Virus record (IMG/VR): IMGVR_UViG_2802429221_000012
Span: 1-6,833 of that record
DNA from: a virus
Lineage: Duplodnaviria > Heunggongvirae > Uroviricota > Caudoviricetes
Length of the DNA: 6,833 nucleotides
Strand: one strand, 5' to 3'
In this document: piece after piece, positions 1 through 6,833 of the stretch
Layout: every line of letters starts with the position of its first letter
How positions within the stretch are numbered: position 1 is the stretch's first letter
Program-made: the position numbers and the translations under genes
Notes under the pieces: model-generated
Database searches by the model: none
Told to the model about the DNA's origin: nothing
The model's input: the letters and a program-made list of their open reading frames with translations, nothing else

Positions 1-1005
1 TTAATCCCCCGTGGACACTGCGTGGACACTCACGCCACCTTTCAGCGGATTAAGGGCCACCGCATCCTGCAGGTAATCCGGTGCAAAATGTGCATATGCC
101 ATTGTTTGCTGAATGGTTGCGTGACCAAGAATCTTCTGAAGTGCAATAATGTTTCCTCCGTTCATCACAAAATGGCTGGCGAACGTATGCCGCAGCACAT
201 GTGCAGCCTGGCCTTTTGGTAAATCGGGCTTAACTCTTTTCAGCGCCAAGCAGAATTCCCGGTACTTCACCTCAAACAAGCCGCCTGTTTCTCTGGTTTT
301 GATCGCCTCACAAACTGCCTGCGAAATTGGCACTGTTCTCTTTCGGCCATTTTTGGTTTCAAGAAACGTTACACGGTTATGAACTATCTGTTCACCACGA
401 AGCTTACAAGCTTCACTCCAGCGCGCCCCTGTGCTTAAACACAAAAGCGCAACACGCCAGTAGTCGCCCTCCAGTGTATCGAGCAATAGCGCTACTTCCT
501 TCTGGGACAGGAAAGCCATTTCTCGTGGAGATACATAAAGAATAGAAATCCCCCTTACCGGATGCTCTGCATCCCAGAGGCCTATTTTCTTCAGTACGGT
601 AAACATTCCGGATAACCGATTCATGTATCTGTTAGCAGATGACGGTTTCAATCCATCAGCTATCTTTTGAGAACGCCACGCGATAATTTTCAGCTTATCA
701 AGATCCACAGCCTGCATATCAGCGCCAAGCTCATTGATTATGTTGCGCAGTTGTTTTCGATCTTCTTCAGCCTTACGCCTGTGCTGGCCGTGATACATCC
801 ACCACAACTCAAGCAAATCATTTAGCGTTCGACGATCACGGTAGCCCTGTATATATTCCCGCTTTTCAGCGTTCGCCATGATGTAGCGTTCAGTGGCCAC
901 CGCTACCGATTTTTTGTCAAATACCTTACGCACGCGCTTTCCCTTGCGTCCGTTCGGCCTGATGTCCAGCAAATAACGACCATCTTCGAGCTTCTTAATC
1001 GACAT
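1..1005 (-). CDS. int: Phage tyrosine integrase (site-specific recombinase), P2 Int-like, 334 aa
   Basis: Track ORF 1..1020(-) begins at a TTG; the first ATG is at 1005..1003 (MSIKKLEDGRY...), preceded on the coding strand by GGAGGG (complement of 1013-1018) at 7 nt spacing. C-terminal region contains HVLRHTFASH and QTMAYAHFAP, the H-x-x-R and catalytic-Tyr motifs typical of tyrosine recombinases. N-terminus and overall length resemble P2 Int from memory. Stop codon is at window positions 3..1. Confidence 0.9.
   Translation of the reverse strand: MSIKKLEDGRYLLDIRPNGRKGKRVRKVFDKKSVAVATERYIMANAEKREYIQGYRDRRTLNDLLELWWMYHGQHRRKAEEDRKQLRNIINELGADMQAVDLDKLKIIAWRSQKIADGLKPSSANRYMNRLSGMFTVLKKIGLWDAEHPVRGISILYVSPREMAFLSQKEVALLLDTLEGDYWRVALLCLSTGARWSEACKLRGEQIVHNRVTFLETKNGRKRTVPISQAVCEAIKTRETGGLFEVKYREFCLALKRVKPDLPKGQAAHVLRHTFASHFVMNGGNIIALQKILGHATIQQTMAYAHFAPDYLQDAVALNPLKGGVSVHAVSTGD
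11..30. repeat. Tandem direct repeat GTGGACACT-gc-GTGGACACT inside the 3' end of int; candidate integrase arm-type binding sites
   Basis: Seen directly: 9-bp unit at 11-19 and 22-30 with an 11-bp period. From memory, P2-family Int arm sites are short direct repeats containing GTGGACA near the int 3' end; that recollection is unverified. Confidence 0.3.
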
Positions 1006-1101
1006 CGCGAAGCCCTCCAATGAACCGCTCTACAATTTCTCCAGCCTCTTTCCAGCAATAATCAGACCAGACAAAAAGCAGGTCTAACCAGTTTTCTGGC
1101 C

Positions 1102-1422
1102 TCAGCGGGGTGATTTTTGGTTTGTTTCGGTTGAAACCTGATCGCCCTCCGAATCGAAGAAGCCATCAAGAGAGAGAGGCGGAGCAATCTGCCCCGTCGC
1201 AGCATTAGTTTGATTAAACATCACCCAATCCGAATACTTCCGAAAACGAGGATGATTCAAAATCAGGAGTAACGTTTCTCCAGGTATCATTCTTCCCAAT
1301 ATTTCATAATTTTTGAGATTGTTTTGAGATACCCCTGTCACCTCTTCCATCTCTCTACGTGACAATCCCTCTGCCTCTCGAATCAGGCGAAGTTTTTCTC
1401 CAAGGCTTGATTTATGGATCAT
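1102..1422 (-). CDS. C: Immunity repressor, P2 C-like HTH protein, 106 aa
   Basis: Track ORF 1102..1440(-) begins at GTG; first ATG at 1422..1420 (MIHKSSLGEKLRL...). Helix-turn-helix-like segment LSRREMEEVTGVSQNNLKNYE, and a C-terminal ...NQTNAATGQIAP... stretch resembling P2 C as I recall it. Divergent from cox, upstream of int, as in the P2 C-int operon. Confidence 0.8.
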   Translation of the reverse strand: MIHKSSLGEKLRLIREAEGLSRREMEEVTGVSQNNLKNYEILGRMIPGETLLLILNHPRFRKYSDWVMFNQTNAATGQIAPPLSLDGFFDSEGDQVSTETNQKSPR

Positions 1423-1537
1423 ATGTGATCTAAACTCCACGATATTGGGTTACATGTAATACAAAACATTCAAATAGCCAAAATAAGCCTATATAAGCCA
1501 TTTTGGGCCATTTGGACGAATTAAGGAGATTACCACA
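1423..1537. promoter_or_regulatory. Divergent Pe/Pc lysis-lysogeny switch region with candidate early promoter and operator repeats
   Basis: 115-bp AT-rich spacer between divergent C and cox starts. Candidate rightward promoter: -35 TTCAAA (1469-1474), 17-bp spacer, -10 TATAAG (1492-1497). Direct repeat TAAGCC at 1484-1489 and 1494-1499 flanks the -10; tandem CCAtttTGG / CCAttTGG at 1498-1506 and 1508-1515 overlaps the predicted transcript start. cox RBS AAGGAG at 1523-1528. Promoter and operator assignments are by eye and not experimentally anchored. Confidence 0.5.
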
Positions 1538-1825
1538 ATGAGCGAATCAGAGCTTGAGGGGTTCATTCAGGTAGCACCATATCCACTTGAAGCGGTGCCA
1601 TATCAACTATTTGCCAAGATGATTGGTCGCAAAGAATCAACCGTCAGAACCATGATTGACGCTGCAAAGTTACCAACGATTGACTTTGTGAAACCAGGTT
1701 CAGTGAAGACGCGAGCATCAGAAAACTGGGTATATCTGCCAGCATTTAACGCAGGTATGCGCAAAGCATTTTTTGATCAGCCGAAAGAGCGCCGCGACGC
1801 ATGGTTGCTCTGGCTGGGTCTTTGA
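1538..1825 (+). CDS. cox: Cox-like excisionase / early transcriptional regulator, 95 aa
   Basis: ATG 1538 with AAGGAG 9 nt upstream. Translation contains ...VPYQLFAKMIGRKESTVRTMIDAAKLPTID...NWVYLPAFNAG...RRDAWLLWLGL, closely resembling P2 Cox as recalled (WVYLPAWN, WLMWLGL). First gene of the rightward operon, divergent from C. Confidence 0.85.
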   Translation: MSESELEGFIQVAPYPLEAVPYQLFAKMIGRKESTVRTMIDAAKLPTIDFVKPGSVKTRASENWVYLPAFNAGMRKAFFDQPKERRDAWLLWLGL

Positions 1826-1836
1826 CGAGGATTTTT

Positions 1837-2178
1837 ATGAGACAACAACGTAATTCACGCTTCCGCAACGGTGCGGAACGCCATGCTAACCGTTTCGCTA
1901 CCAGTGCATCACGTAGCAACTCTCGCTACAGCCTGAGCGAAACACACGCAACGCCGGATGGCTACCCAGTAAAACAAATCGGCGAGCACGCCTGGTTGAT
2001 TGAGAAAGCTGGAATCGTGGTCCACAAATGCCCACGCAATCCGTTTACCGGAAACCGCATTTTTGCACTGAGCAGCGGCGACAATCAGTTCGGGCAGGAT
2101 TTCACATTATACGAAGCACTTCGCACGGTTGATCGTCTGCTTCGCGGGCAAAGTTTTATTAAACAGGCTGATTTATAA
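1837..2178 (+). CDS. Hypothetical phage early protein, 113 aa, basic N-terminus
   Basis: In-frame ATG at 1837 within track ORF 1801..2178, GAGG at 1827-1830 six nt upstream; begins 11 nt after the cox stop. Translation MRQQRNSRFRNGAERHANRF... has no domain I can recognise. Confidence 0.6.
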   Translation: MRQQRNSRFRNGAERHANRFATSASRSNSRYSLSETHATPDGYPVKQIGEHAWLIEKAGIVVHKCPRNPFTGNRIFALSSGDNQFGQDFTLYEALRTVDRLLRGQSFIKQADL

Positions 2179-2188
2179 CAGGTGCTTT

Positions 2189-2467
2189 ATGACCAAAGAG
2201 CATGCACAAGGTGTATTTATCCGTTTTATTGATTTTCGCGGTGAACTGTTATTACGTGCATCAGCTATTGATGCTGTAGCCCAGGCAGAAAAAAAAGCAG
2301 TTACTCACGTTTATGCGAACAACGCACAACTGATCGTGGAGCTTCCGTACCAGACCGTTCGCGAAGCCATTAACGAAGCTGAAAAAGCGTGCCAGGCTAA
2401 TAGCGATGAACCCTATATCGAAATTATTTGTATGGATTCAGAAGCTGAAATTAAGAAAGCAGATTAA
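2189..2467 (+). CDS. Hypothetical phage early protein, 92 aa, acidic
   Basis: In-frame ATG at 2189 within track ORF 2129..2467, 10 nt after the previous stop (MTKEHAQGVFIRF...). Same strand and tight spacing as the rest of the operon. No recognisable domain. Confidence 0.6.
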   Translation: MTKEHAQGVFIRFIDFRGELLLRASAIDAVAQAEKKAVTHVYANNAQLIVELPYQTVREAINEAEKACQANSDEPYIEIICMDSEAEIKKAD

Positions 2468-2478
2468 AGGGCGTTGTG

Positions 2479-2721
2479 ATGGGCAAAGAATATAAAACTC
2501 TCATTAACAAAGCACTTGAGCGTTTTTATTTTCGCTTAAGCGCATCAGGCGCTCATGCTGAACGTGCAGCCCGTGACTCATTGACCAGGGCAATCCGGAG
2601 TCTGTATGACGTGGCTTTTTACGCTGATGATCTGGATGCACTTAACGAACTTTCCGAGCTGATCTGTGCCGCAGAATGCGGGGAACATATTGAACCGTAT
2701 AAGCTGGGGAATATTGCATGA
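2479..2721 (+). CDS. Hypothetical phage early protein, 80 aa
   Basis: ATG at 2479 (track ORF starts at GTG 2476), 11 nt after the previous stop. Translation MGKEYKTLINKALERFYF...; stop TGA 2719-2721 overlaps the start of the next small ORF. Confidence 0.6.
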   Translation: MGKEYKTLINKALERFYFRLSASGAHAERAARDSLTRAIRSLYDVAFYADDLDALNELSELICAAECGEHIEPYKLGNIA

Positions 2722-2831
2722 GTATATTTATCTCATGGCTTGTTCTGATTATTTCGGTGGTCTGCGCCATTGGGATTATGCGAATTATTCATTCAGTAAA
2801 AAAGATTGAACGCTTTTTCACTGGTGAATAA
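2718..2831 (+). CDS. Small hydrophobic peptide, 37 aa, predicted single transmembrane helix with basic C-terminus (not in supplied ORF track)
   Basis: ATG 2718-2720 overlaps the upstream TGA stop (ATGA junction). Translation by hand: MSIFISWLVLIISVVCAIGIMRIIHSVKKIERFFTGE, stop TAA 2829-2831. About 20 hydrophobic residues then KK/R-rich tail. It is short, so a chance ORF in this AT-rich stretch is possible. Confidence 0.4.
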   Translation: MSIFISWLVLIISVVCAIGIMRIIHSVKKIERFFTGE

Positions 2832-2924
2832 CGATACAAATAAAACATCAAATTAAATAAGAAAACGTGAAAACCATCCGTATTAACGGAGGTATTCGCA
2901 CACGAAAATAACGGAGATACAAAA

Positions 2925-3335
2925 ATGCACGCAAAAGAAGAAGGTATCATCAGAGCACTGAAAGAAATTTCAAAGACAGAAAACGAAGTAGCGAAAAAAG
3001 CCATAGCAAATAATCATATGGACGTCGCAACCCACACACTGATAGTCGCAAGAGTCACGGCAGAAGCAGCCGAAATTATCGCACAACAGGATGCTGAACT
3101 GGCGGTTCTCAGAACACAACCAGTCACCGGACTGGATTTGTCTAACACCGGACGCCTTATTTACACAATTGGCTCGGAGCTACAGCGATACACCATTATC
3201 GCCGGGTTACAGGATAAATACCTGATCACTCCTCACCCCATAAGGGAATCAGAAATTCTGACAAATCTCCGCCTGATAGAGCGCTCTCAAGTCGCATTCA
3301 TTGATGACGCACAGTGCACCGTATTTAACGCATAG
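2925..3335 (+). CDS. Hypothetical protein, 136 aa
   Basis: ATG 2925 with GGAG at 2913-2916 (8-nt spacing), preceded by a 93-bp AT-rich spacer (2832-2924) that could hold an internal promoter. Translation MHAKEEGIIRALKEISKTENE... has no recognisable domain. Confidence 0.65.
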   Translation: MHAKEEGIIRALKEISKTENEVAKKAIANNHMDVATHTLIVARVTAEAAEIIAQQDAELAVLRTQPVTGLDLSNTGRLIYTIGSELQRYTIIAGLQDKYLITPHPIRESEILTNLRLIERSQVAFIDDAQCTVFNA

Positions 3336-3358
3336 GGTTACTGGACAAAGGGGGCGCA

Positions 3359-3562
3359 ATGGCAATTAAGCATTTTCCCGTCGTTCGCTTTACCTCCAGA
3401 GGGCGCGAATACGAGGTCGACGAACGCCTGATTACCACTATCGACAAACATCGTTCGGAAAAGGATGCACACCACATCTACCTCACTGACGGCACTTACT
3501 TCTGCGCCACGAATGTGGTGCGGGTGAACCTTATCCGACAGGTACAGGAGTCACGCAGATGA
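3359..3562 (+). CDS. Hypothetical small protein, 67 aa; first gene of a translationally coupled chain
   Basis: ATG 3359 with AAAGGGGG at 3347-3354. Stop TGA 3560-3562 overlaps the next ATG at 3559 (ATGA). C-terminal tail ...VRVNLIRQVQESRR. Confidence 0.6.
   Translation: MAIKHFPVVRFTSRGREYEVDERLITTIDKHRSEKDAHHIYLTDGTYFCATNVVRVNLIRQVQESRR
3520..3562 (+). repeat. Copy 1 of a duplicated ~43-nt gene-junction segment (C-terminal tail codons, Shine-Dalgarno, ATGA overlap)
   Basis: 3534-3562 TCCGACAGGTACAGGAGTCACGCAGATGA versus 3916-3944 TCCGACGGGTACAGGAGTCACACGGATGA: 26 of 29 identical by manual alignment, with weaker similarity extending about 14 nt upstream. Confidence 0.7.
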
Positions 3563-3825
3563 CCATTCTGGACTATATCGCTACTCATCCGGGTTGTAGC
3601 GGCGGAGAAATCGCCGCAGCACTGAATACTCCAACCACAGCCATTAATGCTGAGTTACGCCGACTTTGGCGCAGCGGCTTAGTCATCAGAACAAACCGCA
3701 GCACAGGTGGTCACGCTCGCAAAACAGGAGGCCGGGCTTCTTACCACGTAAACCCGATGCCGTTCGGGTGTGGCAACCCACTAACCCACATGTTTAACCA
3801 GCTACTGAAGGAAGCCAGAGCATGA
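3559..3825 (+). CDS. Putative winged-helix DNA-binding protein, 88 aa
   Basis: ATG 3559 overlapping the upstream stop, with AGGAG at 3546-3550. N-terminal segment LDYIATHPGCSGGEIAAALNTPTTAINAELRRLWRSGLVIR looks like a winged helix-turn-helix; this is inferred from the pattern, not from a search. Confidence 0.6.
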   Translation: MTILDYIATHPGCSGGEIAAALNTPTTAINAELRRLWRSGLVIRTNRSTGGHARKTGGRASYHVNPMPFGCGNPLTHMFNQLLKEARA

Positions 3826-3944
3826 GCACCATCAACCACCAGGAACCACGCGAACTGGCGACTGCCGTACAAAGAATGTCTACCCAAAAATCACTGCCAT
3901 TCCGTGTGAGCCCTGTCCGACGGGTACAGGAGTCACACGGATGA
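3822..3944 (+). CDS. Small ORF, 40 aa, coupled at both ends (not in supplied ORF track)
   Basis: ATG 3822-3824 overlaps the upstream TGA (3823-3825); stop TGA 3942-3944 overlaps the next ATG at 3941. Hand translation: MSTINHQEPRELATAVQRMSTQKSLPFRVSPVRRVQESHG. Its 3' end repeats the 3' end of the 3359-3562 gene. Confidence 0.4.
   Translation: MSTINHQEPRELATAVQRMSTQKSLPFRVSPVRRVQESHG
3902..3944 (+). repeat. Copy 2 of the duplicated ~43-nt gene-junction segment
   Basis: See copy 1. Both copies end in an ATGA stop/start overlap and encode an (I/V)R(Q/R)VQES tail on the upstream protein. Confidence 0.7.
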
Positions 3945-4159
3945 ACAGAAGGAGAATTACACGCAGACATCGCCGCACGCGCCTGAGCTCCCCGCCAACA
4001 CTAAAGGAACTCATTCAAAGCGAGATCGGTGATTTCTTCGCTGGGTTTGGATCACCTGGCGAACCAGAAACACCAGAAGCGATGCAGCGCGAACTCATGA
4101 TGCGCATCGATAACGTTTTTGACTTTTTCCTGAATAACAAAAGAGAGCAACCGACATGA
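3941..4159 (+). CDS. Hypothetical protein with arginine-rich N-terminus, 72 aa
   Basis: ATG 3941 overlapping the upstream stop. N-terminus MNRRRITRRHRRTR has 8 Arg in the first 14 residues, followed by an acidic C-terminal half (EIGDFF...EPETPEAMQRELMM...). Stop overlaps the next ATG at 4156. Confidence 0.6.
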   Translation: MNRRRITRRHRRTRLSSPPTLKELIQSEIGDFFAGFGSPGEPETPEAMQRELMMRIDNVFDFFLNNKREQPT

Positions 4160-4359
4160 ACGAAAGGACCTGGTTTCGCGCATACATGTGGGCGCTGGTA
4201 TGCGTCCTCTTTTCTCTCATTCTGTATGCAGGACTACTCCCCCGAATGATTTCATCAGACAGCTCCTTCCTGGTATTGCTGGGCATTTTCATTGCCATGC
4301 TGTACCCGGCAGGCGTTGTTCGCCTTTTCAGTAAATACATCAAGGAAATCAAACAATGA
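4156..4359 (+). CDS. Small integral membrane protein, 67 aa, two predicted transmembrane helices; putative partner of the downstream SPFH protein
   Basis: ATG 4156 overlapping the upstream stop. Two hydrophobic stretches (WALVCVLFSLILYAGLL and FLVLLGIFIAMLYPAGVV) separated by a short polar loop. Stop TGA 4357-4359 overlaps the SPFH gene ATG at 4356. Confidence 0.65.
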   Translation: MNERTWFRAYMWALVCVLFSLILYAGLLPRMISSDSSFLVLLGIFIAMLYPAGVVRLFSKYIKEIKQ

Positions 4360-5186
4360 AGAAATTCAAACTCTTTCAGATTATCCCGCTTTTTGCCGCC
4401 ATCCTGCTGGTTGGTTGCGATCGCGTTGAACCAGGTAATGTGGGCATCAAAGTCAACAAACTGGGCGACGATAAAGGCGTCGGTGAAGTGGTTGGCGTTG
4501 GCCGCTACTGGACAGGCTGGAATACCGAGGTTTACATCTTCCCGACCTTCAAACAAATGAAGACCTACGATGAGCCATTCAGCTTTCAGATGAGTGACGG
4601 CACAACCATCGGCTATCACATCGGTGTGGCCTACAAGGTTGATCCATCCAAAGTTACCACAGTGTTTCAGACCTACCGCAAAGGCGTGGATGACATTACC
4701 GACACTGACCTGCGCCAAAAGATCGCCGATGCACTCAACCGACTGGCCAGCAAAATGACCACCGATAAGTTTATCGACGGTGGCAAGTCTGAACTGCTGG
4801 ATTCAGCACTTAAAGACATTCAGGCAGAAATGACACCTATCGGCATTCAGGTAATGAGCCTCTCTTATGTGGGTAAGCCGGAATACCCGCCAACCGTTAT
4901 CGACAGCATTAATGCCAAAGTCACGGCAAACCAGAAAACTCTGCAACGCGAGCAGGAAGTCAAGCAACGCGAAGCAGAAGCCAACATGTTGCGCGCAGAA
5001 GCTGCCGGACAGGCTGATGCCATTCGCACAAAAGCCCAGGCTGAAGCCGACGCCATTCGTTTACGCGGTGAAGCTCTGCGCCAGAATCCCGGCGTTATGG
5101 AGCTGGAAGCAATCAACAAATGGAACGGCACGCTGCCGCAATACATGACCAGCAATACCGCTGTTCCGTTTGTTCCGGTGAAGTAA
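4356..5186 (+). CDS. SPFH/band-7 (stomatin/prohibitin/HflK-C-like) family lipoprotein, 276 aa
   Basis: ATG 4356 with AAGGAA at 4342-4347. N-terminus MKKFKLFQIIPLFAAILLVGCDR is a signal peptide plus lipobox (LVGC); Asp at +2 after the Cys suggests inner-membrane retention in enterobacteria. C-terminal Ala/Glu/Gln/Arg-rich predicted coiled-coil segment ...QREAEANMLRAEAAGQADAIRTKAQAEADAIRLRGEALRQNPGVMELEAINKW... is characteristic of SPFH-domain proteins. Family assignment is from motif recognition only. Confidence 0.75.
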   Translation: MKKFKLFQIIPLFAAILLVGCDRVEPGNVGIKVNKLGDDKGVGEVVGVGRYWTGWNTEVYIFPTFKQMKTYDEPFSFQMSDGTTIGYHIGVAYKVDPSKVTTVFQTYRKGVDDITDTDLRQKIADALNRLASKMTTDKFIDGGKSELLDSALKDIQAEMTPIGIQVMSLSYVGKPEYPPTVIDSINAKVTANQKTLQREQEVKQREAEANMLRAEAAGQADAIRTKAQAEADAIRLRGEALRQNPGVMELEAINKWNGTLPQYMTSNTAVPFVPVK

Positions 5187-5192
5187 TTAAAC

Positions 5193-5237
5193 CCGGCCGG
5201 TGAAAATCGCTGGCCGGAGCAGTATCAGGATTTTTTT
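5193..5237 (+). terminator. Candidate terminator-like hairpin downstream of the SPFH gene
   Basis: CCGGCCGG (5193-5200) pairs with CTGGCCGG (5210-5217), an 8-bp GC-rich stem with one G-U pair and a 9-nt loop. The T7 run (5231-5237) is 13 nt downstream, so this is atypical for an intrinsic terminator. Confidence 0.3.
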
Positions 5238-5338
5238 AGCATGCCGTTCTCACAAAAAAACCGCTTGCCATGCCGCAATCAGTCAGGTTACATTTCCGCT
5301 GTACCTCATAAAACGGGTGCCGGGTTTCGCAGCCTGCT

Positions 5339-5544
5339 GACTAGCAAAGCGCACAACCGCGCCAGCGGTTTTTTTGTGCGTACTGTATTGCCACGTCTTT
5401 TTCGCACACGAATTATGGCGGGGCGTACGGGGCCGACTTCGGTCGGGCCGGGTTCTTTGCTAGCCGGTACTGCGAACCTCGTACGTCTCGCCACCCACAG
5501 TTTCGCAGCTCTGGATGGTGAGTTTTCAAAACTTACTAGCAAAG
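5339..5544. repeat. Three copies of a 9-10 bp motif ACTAGCAAAG (two direct, one inverted) in the non-coding spacer; candidate regulator binding sites
   Basis: ACTAGCAAAG at 5339-5348 and 5535-5544 (flanks CTnACTAGCAAAGnG also match); inverted copy CTTTGCTAGC at 5455-5464. The core GCTAGC is palindromic. The third copy directly abuts the AAGAGG RBS (5542-5547) of the 5555 gene. Confidence 0.4.
5351..5379 (+). terminator. Candidate intrinsic terminator (short GC stem plus T7 run)
   Basis: ACCGC (5356-5360) / loop GCCA / GCGGT (5365-5369) followed immediately by TTTTTTT (5369-5375). Flanking GCACAA (5351-5356) and TTGTGC (5374-5379) are also complementary. The stem is short, so strength is uncertain. 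Confidence 0.4.
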
Positions 5545-5554
5545 AGGCCACACC

Positions 5555-5785
5555 ATGGCAAACCGCAAACAGCACCGCGCTATCGCGGAGCGTCGTCACA
5601 TCCAGACTGAAATCGATCGCAGACTCACCCGCGCTGCACACATCGCCTTTATCATGCAATCCAACACATTGCACAGACTCAACAGCACTATTTCAGCCGA
5701 CTACTGCGCCGCTGTATTCAGCTATCTGGCGGAAGACCTCCTGTCTCTTCAGGATCTCATCCAGCAGCAAAACAAACTCCATTAA
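5555..5785 (+). CDS. Hypothetical phage early protein, 76 aa
   Basis: ATG 5555 with AAGAGG at 5542-5547 (7-nt spacing). Translation MANRKQHRAIAERRHIQTEIDRRLTRAAHIAF...; same strand as, and upstream of, the replication gene. Confidence 0.6.
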   Translation: MANRKQHRAIAERRHIQTEIDRRLTRAAHIAFIMQSNTLHRLNSTISADYCAAVFSYLAEDLLSLQDLIQQQNKLH

Positions 5786-5858
5786 TTCCTGTTCCGGGCC
5801 TTTCCTGCACCTTGCGGCGGGAGGCCTTCGCACATCTGTAGTAAAGAGGATTGCCGCA

Positions 5859-6224
5859 ATGATTCTCGCCAACGACTTTCTTGAATACCTGCTCAACACA
5901 GAGCGTGATCTTGCCGTTCGCGTGCGTGAACGTTATGACATGTACCTGAAATCCCTGCCTGTACCGCAGCTCGCTGACGGAAAATTTGTTATTGATGGTC
6001 GCTACATGATTGACAGCCACGAGGGGAATTACAGGCTTTACCGCATTGAAGCCGGCACCCCGTCCGTTATTGGCATTTACCAGCGCCCATCCTCTGCGAT
6101 CGTCGATGTGATTGCCGACAGCATCCGCATCACACATCGCCATGCCGACACAGAAGACACCGTGCTGGAAATTCAGCGGCTGGCTACAGTCTGCCGCGAC
6201 ACCCTGAATGGCATGACGAAGTAA
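5859..6224 (+). CDS. Hypothetical phage early protein, 121 aa, immediately upstream of replication gene A
   Basis: Track ORF 5241..6224 is an open frame with a low-complexity S/T/R-rich 5' region that overlaps the terminator-like hairpins and the 5555 gene. The plausible start is the in-frame ATG at 5859, with AAGAGG at 5844-5849 (9-nt spacing). Translation MILANDFLEYLLNTERDLAVRVRERYDMYLK...; stop TAA 6222-6224. Confidence 0.6.
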   Translation: MILANDFLEYLLNTERDLAVRVRERYDMYLKSLPVPQLADGKFVIDGRYMIDSHEGNYRLYRIEAGTPSVIGIYQRPSSAIVDVIADSIRITHRHADTEDTVLEIQRLATVCRDTLNGMTK

Positions 6225-6230
6225 ATCACT

Positions 6231-6833
6231 ATGACAGCAGAGTACATCAGGGACTGGCAACAACCGCGCCACGCAGTGGGGCGTGAAGGAACGGGGATCC
6301 CCGCTCCTGAATCCGCGCTTTCCTCCTGGCTGGATGCCTACCGGGCAGAGAACGAGCGCCGCCAGGAAATAGCTGATGCGGCGTTCTCCGCCACACCGCT
6401 GGGCAACCTGATTAATAAAAGCCTGGACGCACAGGAAAAACAGGACAAAACCATCACACTGGCAGGAGACGCCAGAAAACAGGCACGCGGCGCGGTGGAT
6501 GAAGCCATGGCCTCGCTGCGCCTGCTGCCGTCCTATCTGCGCGATCCGCTTATTCGCCACCTCTCCTTCCTGCGCAAAAAACAGGAAGCCGATCGCCGGA
6601 AAGGCAAAAAGAGCTGGCAGGCTGAACGCTACGCGTGCGGAACCCTGCGCAAAATATTCGAACGTCTGGACCGCACCGACCACCGCTGGCTGACACCGGG
6701 TTATCGCTCCCTTGCCGGACGCGAACGCCTGGATGATTTGCTTTACCTACCGCAGCTCAACAAACACCAGATACAGACACTGGCCACCATGACGGCGGCG
6801 ATGTTCAGCAGCACCTTCGAAAAACTCTGCGAT
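6231..6833 (+). CDS. A: Replication initiation endonuclease, P2 gpA-like, N-terminal 201 codons (3' end beyond the window)
   Basis: ATG 6231, 6 nt after the previous stop; frame is open to the window end by manual translation (MTAEYIRDWQQPRHAVGREGTGIP...LRLLPSYLRDPLIRHLSFLRKKQ...AAMFSSTFEKLCD). The RLPSYLR and F..EKLCD segments resemble the N-terminal region of P2 gpA as I recall it; position after the early genes matches P2. Absent from the ORF track because it has no stop inside the window. Confidence 0.7.
   Translation, partial: MTAEYIRDWQQPRHAVGREGTGIPAPESALSSWLDAYRAENERRQEIADAAFSATPLGNLINKSLDAQEKQDKTITLAGDARKQARGAVDEAMASLRLLPSYLRDPLIRHLSFLRKKQEADRRKGKKSWQAERYACGTLRKIFERLDRTDHRWLTPGYRSLAGRERLDDLLYLPQLNKHQIQTLATMTAAMFSSTFEKLCD

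Follow-up and report, generated by a model that had tools for sequence, protein, structure and literature searches.

In the stretch of viral DNA analysed here (6,833 nucleotides, positions 1 to 6,833 of the IMG/VR record IMGVR_UViG_2802429221_000012; in the following, the window means this whole stretch) we find two overlapping genes, the second of which encodes a protein of 276 amino acids (aa) with an SPFH (Band_7) domain and a predicted lipoprotein signal, and the first a protein of 67 aa that is predicted to be a two-helix membrane hairpin with both termini in the cytoplasm (N-in/C-in). Judged from sequence comparisons, the pair is a conserved and old unit. An earlier note on this DNA, made from its sequence alone, had proposed that the two proteins form a pair; that they work as one is supported by synteny between distant relatives and by natural fusions. 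Our preferred reading, to which we give an even chance, is that they form an early-expressed, periplasm-facing SPFH cage which, together with the hairpin, sits on the inner membrane and remodels the host membrane during lytic development.

The 276-aa protein had been assigned to the SPFH family from motifs, and the Pfam search bore this out. The Band_7/SPFH profile (PF01145) matches residues 23-209 over its full length (profile positions 2-176 of 176) with an E-value of 7.6e-31 and 107.9 bits, the cutoff being 23.6. The protein also matches PHROG 200 ('lipoprotein', E 8.8e-112), the same family as gp20 of coliphage N4. An AlphaFold2 (AF2) model of the monomer, calculated from an alignment of 39 sequences (confidence score, pLDDT, 81.3), consists of an alpha/beta SPFH domain, one helix of 65 residues, a short helix and a low-confidence tail; strands lie within residues 20-95, helices within 97-159, a further strand at 164-176 and the long helix at 179-243. 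A Foldseek comparison of the model with the PDB gave 66 matches at E <= 0.001, the first 40 of which consist entirely of SPFH cage proteins and vault. The best match is HflC (7vhq_G, E 2.5e-13), followed by prohibitin, erlin, HflK, stomatin, flotillin, vault and QmcA. Among solved structures, the chains closest in sequence are those of HflK and prohibitin-2, and the segment that is aligned to these two, by sequence and by fold, is the long helix, which corresponds to the wall-forming coiled-coil helix of SPFH cages. Close to the C-terminus, W256, G258 and P261 are invariant or almost so in two alignments of SPFH relatives, and the pLDDT falls below 60 from about residue 250; this W-x-G-x-x-P region is presumably a cap that depends on the oligomer.

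The likeness to HflK and HflC on which the earlier note had drawn does not amount to orthology. In the NCBIfam scan the protein reached 24.8 bits for HflC (cutoff 134.4) and 22.7 bits for HflK (cutoff 159.4), and FloT was sub-threshold as well. We rejected it as an orthologue of HflK or HflC. It also has a lipoprotein signal instead of a transmembrane (TM) anchor and is encoded by the single SPFH gene of the window. We also rejected the label 'serine protease', which many records give to this gene, because the Pfam scan of the protein shows no protease domain. Other labels found for the lipoprotein in deposited genomes are 'transposase', 'transferase', 'peptidyl-tRNA hydrolase' and 'tail length tape measure protein'.

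Membrane helices and lipoprotein signals were assigned throughout by hydropathy and motif rules, not by TMHMM, SignalP or LipoP. The SPFH protein begins with MKKFKLFQIIPLFAAILLVGC, directly followed by Asp-Arg (DR). This N-terminus has the layout of a lipoprotein signal, MKKFK-LFQIIPLFAAIL-LVGC, that is, a basic region, a hydrophobic region and a lipobox of the form [LVI][ASTVI][GAS]C at residues 18-21. The lipobox and the Asp at position +2 are thus present as had been read from the sequence before, and Cys21 would be the residue that carries the lipid and with which the mature protein begins. Among the 106 close relatives with a recognisable motif, every one has D-R at +2/+3 and 96 keep the lipobox Cys. 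For more distant relatives, an exhaustive profile-free search gave 2,894 clusters (50% identity) at E <= 1e-3 and 221 at E <= 1e-30, and 140 full-length representatives were taken; most of these are lipoproteins of about 280 aa, and most also carry a lipobox.

The partner protein matches PHROG 1130 ('membrane protein', E 8.1e-23), the same family as N4 gp19. It has two hydrophobic stretches (approximately residues 6-33 and 31-58, by hydropathy), and its Lys and Arg residues are found at positions 4, 8, 30 and 56, 60, 63, 66. Since basic residues flank both ends around the hydrophobic stretches, we predict an N-in/C-in hairpin, and these stretches together with the charge pattern agree with the small two-TM membrane partner described in the earlier note. 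The loop is conserved: an alignment of 30 sequences, with a gapless core, has the consensus G...P.LISA.ST..V..G, in which P29, S33 and G43 are almost invariant. As a rule for the whole module we used a two-TM hairpin of about 50-85 aa with the loop P-x-[LM]-[ILVM]-S-[AS]-x-[SDN]-[TSD], either fused to the SPFH gene or directly 5' of it, and the window pair conforms to this. The motif is also seen in N4 gp19, GAP31 gp161, Munch, phi1026b gp49, V10, Pacha and cr128. A search with the partner alone in a word-indexed protein collection returned 17 close relatives; the wider family was recovered via synteny and the motif. The stop codon of the partner gene overlaps the SPFH start as ATGA, implying that translation of the two may be coupled. 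Overlaps are found elsewhere too, with 4 nucleotides in a Salmonella prophage (locus L162), one shared base in loci L165 and L166 and 8 nucleotides in N4 gp19/gp20.

We were not able to assign the partner to a known domain family. It has no Pfam family, neither in the scan of the window proteins nor among 30 diverse partners, for which Pfam and PDB profile searches gave chance-level hydrophobic matches. The earlier note had likened it to the NfeD/YbbJ/YqiJ-type partners of cellular SPFH proteins. This could not be upheld: NfeD (PF01957) is absent at E <= 0.1 for the window partner and likewise in 0 of 30 diverse partners, and 67 aa leave no room for an additional OB-fold domain. RseC_MucC (E 0.021) was rejected, as only 2 of the 30 members show a weak match. 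A class II holin would fit in size and topology, but there are no adjoining lysis genes, and holin matches are at chance level in 2 of the 30 partners (one member each, E 0.038 and 0.058).

The association of the two genes reaches far. A hairpin ORF (open reading frame) lies 5' of the SPFH gene in 81 of 85 viral loci, and one of the four without it is a contig end. Among cultured phages, a hairpin with the motif is found beside the SPFH gene in eight of ten sampled lineages, with one small gene in between in GAP31. Among species-representative genomes, nearly every locus with an SPFH identity of about 39% or more has the hairpin in front of the SPFH gene; Enterobacterales, Sutterella, Dependentiae and Methylumidiphilus are among them. 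At about 30-34% identity, three loci from Patescibacteria encode the hairpin and the SPFH domain as one fused protein. Fusions were also seen in the set of 140 distant representatives, about 20 of which are 320-390 aa long and have an N-terminal extension made of the hairpin and a third, signal-like helix; one fusion (P0001) also occurs among P1-like relatives. The stand-alone partners and the fused extensions align without gaps and have the loop signature in common, and in all 19 hairpin-fused extensions inspected by eye the lipobox position is still occupied by a Cys. The order hairpin, export helix with Cys, SPFH is workable only with an N-in/C-in hairpin and a periplasmic SPFH domain, and the fusions therefore argue for this topology. 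In loci L005 and L006 (Shigella flexneri, E. coli; 5600-6000) an IS1 insertion has destroyed the hairpin ORF, leaving IS1 transposase fragments and an orphan SPFH gene.

In several records the hairpin ORF is present and unannotated, namely in phiP27 (L002 2762-2950), in RCS47 (L003 2730-2966) and other P1-like records, and in the crAss-like cr128_1 (L178 ~1017-1209); its stop codon either overlaps the start of the SPFH gene or lies right against it.

Of 50,697 deposited phage genomes searched at the protein level, 379 have the family. The carriers include N4-like podoviruses, rV5/GAP31-like myoviruses, FelixO1-like phages, Bruynogheviruses, jumbo phages (Munch, Lak, phiCbK-like), a crAss-like phage and roseophages, and temperate phages of the P2, lambda, P1, SSU5 and phi1026b types. 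Most carrier phages are obligately virulent (N4-like, rV5-like, jumbo, crAss-like), as is most of the listed sample, and the occurrence of the family is not a marker of a temperate lifestyle. We inspected three divergent members with Pfam-labelled neighbours, and all lie in early or replication blocks of phages: a Salmonella prophage (L162), where the pair stands between the genes for the single-stranded DNA-binding protein and DNA polymerase A, an Epibacterium prophage, and a 157-kb virulent-type contig with ribonucleotide reductase, Thy1 and homing endonucleases. In the window, cox lies upstream and the replication nickase A downstream of the pair, and in N4-like phages the pair comes directly after the RNA polymerase II genes. 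A Bruynoghevirus has the SPFH gene alone (its neighbour is without the hairpin motif), about 5.4 kb from the left end and after 'conserved early protein' genes. In lambdoid Stx/phiP27 phages the pair is near int and xis, and in P1-like plasmid-prophages (RCS47, L003 2730-3774) it is found between upl and tRNA-Met/ban, a slot in which P1 itself carries tciA-tciB-tciC. In N4-like phages, a gene annotated 'superinfection exclusion, similar to P22 gp17' stands immediately 5' of the pair (Moo19 gp29, L168 3391-3705; N4 gp18, L170 1669-1983).

In bacterial genomes, the SPFH gene is carried by 711 of 5,426 complete E. coli genomes (13%), at 418 chromosomal places and 386 on plasmids, and the window-type pair is complete in 145 of them. 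An SPFH protein 100% identical to that of the window is encoded on a Salmonella enterica chromosome (L004). About 25 genomes of Dyella and other Rhodanobacteraceae (within L018-L059) hold the pair in a stable, non-phage chromosomal locus, which supports a general rather than phage-specific function. There, the pair always divergently adjoins a gene for a BlaR1-type M56 membrane metallopeptidase, near nrdAB (e.g. L038 2848-5001(-) and 5744-6783(+)). This neighbourhood could be inherited synteny or a hint of a link between the SPFH protein and a membrane protease.

The alleles of the enteric phages differ in an uneven way. The SPFH core of the window has 87-93% nucleotide identity with lambdoid phiP27, Stx2 phages and P1-like plasmid-prophages (megablast), and the lipobox is the exact point from which the lambdoid and P1-like alleles are similar to it (start of the match at window position ~4413-4416, boundary ~4413-4418). 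In comparisons of the P2-, lambda- and P1-type alleles, identity amounts to 25-46% for the partner and 32-42% for the signal peptide, as against 95-98% for the mature SPFH protein. Which partner allele is present (67, 62 or 78 aa) goes with the phage backbone, and the 62- and 78-aa ORFs, in phiP27 and RCS47, overlap the SPFH start. There are two possible explanations for this mosaic boundary: a recent recombinational exchange of the mature part, or a fast-evolving partner and signal peptide that act as a specificity determinant.

Combining these results, we suggest the following mechanism. Going by its sequence, the SPFH protein would be exported, lipidated on Cys21 and held in the inner membrane by the Asp at +2, so that the SPFH domain and the long helix would face the periplasm, as those of HflK/C do. 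By homology to HflK/C, prohibitin, erlin, stomatin and flotillin, its most likely assembly is a homo-oligomer in the shape of a ring or dome, with a patch of membrane fenced off inside. The partner would insert into the inner membrane as an N-in/C-in helical hairpin with its loop (P-x-M-I-S-S-x-S-S) in the periplasm, supply the membrane-spanning helices that a lipoprotein lacks, and contact the membrane-proximal face of the SPFH ring with this loop. Because the pair sits among early or replication genes, we expect it to act on the host inner membrane during lytic development and not as a lysogeny switch.

What the cage might hold is more doubtful. Our leading but tentative guess, which we consider rather less probable than the cage itself, is that it sequesters or modulates a client in the host inner membrane, such as FtsH, in the manner of HflK/C. 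An FtsH-type client is favoured since the nearest relatives all partner with FtsH-type proteases. FtsH degrades sigma-32, LpxC and SecY. To inhibit or corral it would help virulent phages also, as sigma-32 or phage membrane proteins, for instance, might then be more stable. The neighbourhoods examined showed no FtsH-type gene, which says nothing on the binding of the host FtsH. In its broadest and, in our opinion, unlikely form, the pair would be a widespread host-takeover device that captures an inner-membrane machine, with FtsH as prime candidate, and reprograms membrane proteostasis in virulent and temperate phages alike, the fast-evolving hairpin setting the specificity for client or phage type.

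Several observations weigh against the proposed cage. The HflK/HflC equivalog scores are far under their cutoffs, and the AF2 model is that of a monomer; lipidation, location, oligomer, partner contact and the timing of expression are all inferred. The lipobox is not universal: about 10 of the 106 close relatives are without its Cys (8 Tyr, 1 Trp, 1 Phe), and in a widespread enteric variant (P0116, 175 contigs) Tyr replaces it (…IIGYDRVEPG). Going by sequence, such variants cannot be lipidated at the usual site. Moreover, as the +2 residue is mostly Ser, Thr or Gly outside the enterics, retention in the inner membrane cannot be generalised. The hairpin is not universal either. It is absent beside the SPFH gene in Kapaibacteria, in a genome of Myxococcaceae (L053) and in a TM-anchored clade of Oxalobacteraceae and Chitinibacter (27-31% identity); the FelixO1-like Pistou and Bruynoghevirus U47 are without it, and the phiCbK-like CcrSwift has a different, multi-TM neighbour. 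From the mosaic (partner 25-46%, mature SPFH 95-98% identical) it follows that, outside the loop, the partner is not tightly co-adapted to the SPFH protein and may interact elsewhere. Finally, an HflK/C-like protein of a Pasteurella prophage, PM0222, was detected in uninduced cultures and in outer-membrane vesicles (PMC9872710). If it belongs to the same family, it argues for expression in lysogens and for another location.

The same findings can be read in other ways. The earlier note had suggested that the pair biases lysogeny: by mimicking or perturbing HflK/C, it would alter the degradation of CII-type regulators by FtsH and so shift the decision between lysis and lysogeny. HflK/C modulate FtsH, which degrades lambda CII (Kihara et al. 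1997, cited in PMC8540360), the closest relatives in sequence and structure are HflK and HflC with a like predicted periplasmic orientation, and in the lambdoid Stx/phiP27 phages the pair is close to int and xis. The analogy to HflK/C and CII has already been in print, as speculation, for an SPFH gene of a phage (PMC4936722; PMC8540360). However, most of the 379 carriers are virulent and have no lysogeny decision to make, a point that has been raised before (PMC8540360), and the temperate copies are in early or replication blocks. The phage of the window itself is P2-like with a C/Cox switch, no CII-type regulator was detected among its early ORFs, and the place of the pair is after cox, among the early genes of the lytic programme; the Rhodanobacteraceae, moreover, hold the pair at a non-phage chromosomal locus. 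As a general function, we regard a lysogeny bias as very improbable. Still further from likely, in our estimate, is a role in lysogenic conversion and virulence, in which the prophage gene would give rise to a triacylated lipoprotein that arrives at the cell surface or in vesicles and stimulates the animal host as a Toll-like receptor (TLR) 1/2 agonist. This was reported for Pasteurella multocida PM0222, a prophage HflK/C-like protein of 25-35 kDa which is found in uninduced cultures and vesicles, triggers TLR1/2 signalling and whose deletion attenuates in mice (PMC9872710), and the family is indeed common in prophages and plasmid-prophages of pathogenic E. coli (in the 711 of 5,426 complete genomes given above). 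On the other hand, PM0222 is only possibly related to the phage SPFH family, any lipoprotein is a TLR2 ligand, Asp at +2 predicts inner-membrane retention in the enterics, and an effect on animal hosts would leave the virulent environmental carriers (roseophage, Caulobacter, crAss-like and Lak phages) unexplained.

Two further alternatives stay closer to the membrane. One is a role in membrane-level exclusion, which had also been raised before: produced early in infection, and in lysogens perhaps in small amounts, the cage and the hairpin could stop incoming DNA or ejection proteins from crossing the periplasm or inner membrane. The predicted location and the place among early genes would suit this, as would the 'superinfection exclusion' gene next to the N4-like pair, the accessory slot between upl and tRNA-Met/ban in P1-like plasmid-prophages, and the PHROG category of the partner ('moron, auxiliary metabolic gene and host takeover'). 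That the partner allele follows the phage backbone strictly while the mature SPFH protein is near constant is also what is expected of a specificity determinant. But no similarity to known exclusion proteins or PADLOC models was found (in PADLOC-DB v2 the SPFH protein has no match, and the partner reaches only 14.3 bits, E 0.0076, over 21 residues of PDC-M18B), a big SPFH cage is an odd way to block entry, and the syntenic, vertically kept copy in about 25 Rhodanobacteraceae genomes fits a housekeeping role in the membrane better. We judge exclusion improbable, though worth keeping in mind; the related idea of an abortive-infection device found no support, there being no match to any known defence or abortive-infection system in PADLOC. 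Quite improbable, too, is that the cage strengthens the inner membrane or divides it into compartments, for example by holding back holin-like proteins or by protecting phage membrane proteins from quality control, so that there is no premature lysis; the hairpin could then itself be the confined client. Its size, topology and charged C-terminus are like those of a class II holin, and N4 is noted for its very delayed lysis. Bacterial SPFH proteins are linked to the tolerance of membrane stress (PMC10434171, PMC8581546, PMC11222466). The pair, however, is never beside a lysis cassette in the contexts examined, and the holin matches of the partner in Pfam are at chance level, as given above.

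Compared with known systems, the pair has the most in common with HflK/HflC-FtsH of E. coli (PDB 7vhp, 7vhq, 7wi3, 9cz2), namely the SPFH fold with its long wall helix, the best match in structure and sequence, the predicted periplasmic side and a dome expected by homology. HflK and HflC are, however, a pair of paralogues with an N-terminal TM helix, whereas the window has one SPFH gene with a predicted lipid anchor and a separate two-TM hairpin, and the identity is only 16-18%. Bacterial prohibitin-like SPFH proteins and eukaryotic PHB1/2 (PDB 8rrh, 9o9z) give the second-best match in fold and sequence, lie on the side equivalent to the periplasm and partner with an FtsH-type AAA protease; unlike the phage protein, they are TM-anchored hetero-oligomers without a lipid anchor or a hairpin partner. 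The SPFH-NfeD operons (QmcA-YbbJ, PDB 8z5g; YqiK-YqiJ; FloT-YuaF) are alike in that the SPFH gene is co-transcribed with a gene for a small membrane partner directly 5' of it, and in that family partner and SPFH protein are sometimes fused or duplicated, while no partner was found for SPFH subfamilies 3, 4 and 6-12 (Hinderhofer 2009, PMC2636767). There, the partner has an OB-fold and the SPFH protein is cytoplasmic, whereas in the phage pair the partner of about 60-80 aa is a hairpin alone and the SPFH protein is predicted to be periplasmic. With T4 Imm and Sp, P1 Sim and P22 SieA the likeness is in possible role only. They are small phage membrane proteins, early or accessory, whose place of action is the inner membrane or the periplasm; neither in sequence nor in fold are they related to the pair, and none of them is an SPFH protein.

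Among phages, coliphage N4 has the same two-gene module: gp20 is 63% identical to the SPFH protein of the window, and gp19 is a 68-aa hairpin with the loop LLPSMVSALDS. N4 differs in being a virulent podovirus and in that gp20 has Tyr at +2 and Asp-Arg at +3/+4 (C-Y-D-R). In the literature searched we found no published function for N4 gp19/gp20. Gp11/gp12 of P88 (Xuanwuvirus, P2-like) are essentially the same locus and are annotated just as 'membrane protein' and 'lipoprotein / serine protease'. The proteins are thus already catalogued, as PHROG 200 and 1130, N4 gp19/gp20, P88 gp11/gp12 and the RefSeq 'SPFH domain-containing protein'. The purpose of an SPFH gene in a phage genome 'remains unclear' (PMC13239085), and our literature search (N4 gp19/gp20, SPFH with anti-phage or superinfection, phage HflK/C) returned annotation remarks and speculation only and no experimental study of a viral SPFH pair. 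There appears to be no earlier description of the conserved hairpin partner, of its loop motif, of the fusions or of the predominance of virulent phages among the carriers.

The window is the left end of a P2-like prophage of the Xuanwuvirus P88 type, and its integrase, C-type repressor, Cox and nickase agree with the prophage origin that had been proposed. The gene order is the same as in phage P88, with 94% nucleotide identity in the pair region; the amino-acid identities are 94% for the partner (P88 gp11) and 99.3% for the SPFH protein (P88 gp12), and P88 gp16, 'replication endonuclease', is the positional equivalent of the nickase. All ORFs between 1538 and 5186 are on the + strand, and since those from 3359 onward are chained by stop/start overlaps, the pair is embedded in the early region from cox to A. 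A promoter consensus scan found no sigma-70-like promoter directly upstream of the pair. The GC content of the pair (0.47-0.53) is in line with the neighbouring genes, so that composition gives no evidence for a recent foreign 'moron'. The coordinates are collected in the following table.

Features of the window (position 1 is its first nucleotide)
Feature	Position	Strand	Evidence or remark
Integrase	1-1020	-	
C-type helix-turn-helix repressor	1102-1440	-	
cox (Cox-like excisionase/repressor), first gene of the P2-type early region that holds the pair	1538-1825	+	Pfam Phage_Cox, E 1.2e-22; PHROG 272
Small early ORFs after cox		+	PHROGs 2492, 3800, DUF4754, 9338, 3459, MarR-type winged-helix protein, 4144
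Partner ORF, 67 aa	4156-4359	+	PHROG 1130
Hairpin-loop signature LLPRMISSDSS, partner residues 27-37	4234-4266	+	
ATGA stop/start overlap, partner/SPFH	4356-4359	+	
SPFH/Band_7 ORF, 276 aa	4356-5186	+	Pfam PF01145; PHROG 200
Predicted lipoprotein signal peptide with lipobox LVGC (lipobox nucleotides 4407-4418)	4356-4418	+	
Asp22, predicted inner-membrane retention residue	4419-4421	+	
SPFH (Band_7) alpha/beta domain, residues 23-209	4422-4982	+	Pfam envelope
Single 65-residue helix, residues 179-243, rich in Ala/Glu/Gln/Arg	4890-5084	+	AF2
C-terminal motif W256-N-G258-T-L-P261 (family KW[ND]GxLP)	5121-5138	+	Alignments of SPFH relatives
GC-rich 11-bp hairpin just past the SPFH stop	5193-5217	+	RNA fold -22.7 kcal/mol, z -2.35
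isrK Hfq-binding small RNA	5301-5375	+	61.7 bits, gathering score 50
C4 antisense RNA	5411-5498	+	82.8 bits, gathering score 45
PHROG 3688 gene	5555-5785	+	
PHROG 3237 gene	5865-6224	+	
Replication nickase (P2 A-like), N-terminal part, runs off the window; downstream end of the early region	6231-6833	+	PHROG 91 'nicking at origin of replication', E 1.1e-17

Downstream of the pair, the GC-rich hairpin may mark the end of the transcript or stabilise it. We rejected it as a canonical terminator, since the U-run is about 12 nucleotides further downstream and a consensus terminator scan gave no call. Two long ORFs from the mechanical ORF list, 5241-6224(+) and 5757-6683(-), were rejected as genes over 5241-5860, because this stretch carries the isrK and C4 RNAs, and are probably not genes as listed; the real genes appear to be 5555-5785, 5865-6224 and the nickase from 6231. 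The only two promoter-like matches on the + strand in that part of the window, 5265-5294 and 5388-5416, are just 5' of these RNAs, and P88 annotates a 'derepression protein' at this position. The stretch looks like an antirepressor-control module of the P1 immI type (c4/icd/ant) or the Gifsy-1 isrK type within a P2-like early region.

SPFH cages, such as those of HflK/C, prohibitin, stomatin, flotillin and erlin, became accessible to structural work only from 2022 onward, and their contents have yet to be settled. A compact two-gene system of phages, with natural fusions and three naturally swapped partner alleles, offers a way into the questions of how such a cage is fixed to the membrane, which clients it takes up and what advantage a phage draws from altering the inner membrane of its host. 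Hundreds of cultured phages, among them such models as N4, P1-like, Stx-converting and P2-like phages, have the pair, with a hairpin partner that was previously unrecognised and is often unannotated. Two annotation errors are corrected, namely the label 'serine protease' and the reading of the presence of the gene as a marker of a temperate lifestyle. If the pair does form a host-takeover cage, it would be the first viral SPFH cage and would define a new, non-NfeD class of SPFH partner, open to study in N4, P1-like and Stx phages.

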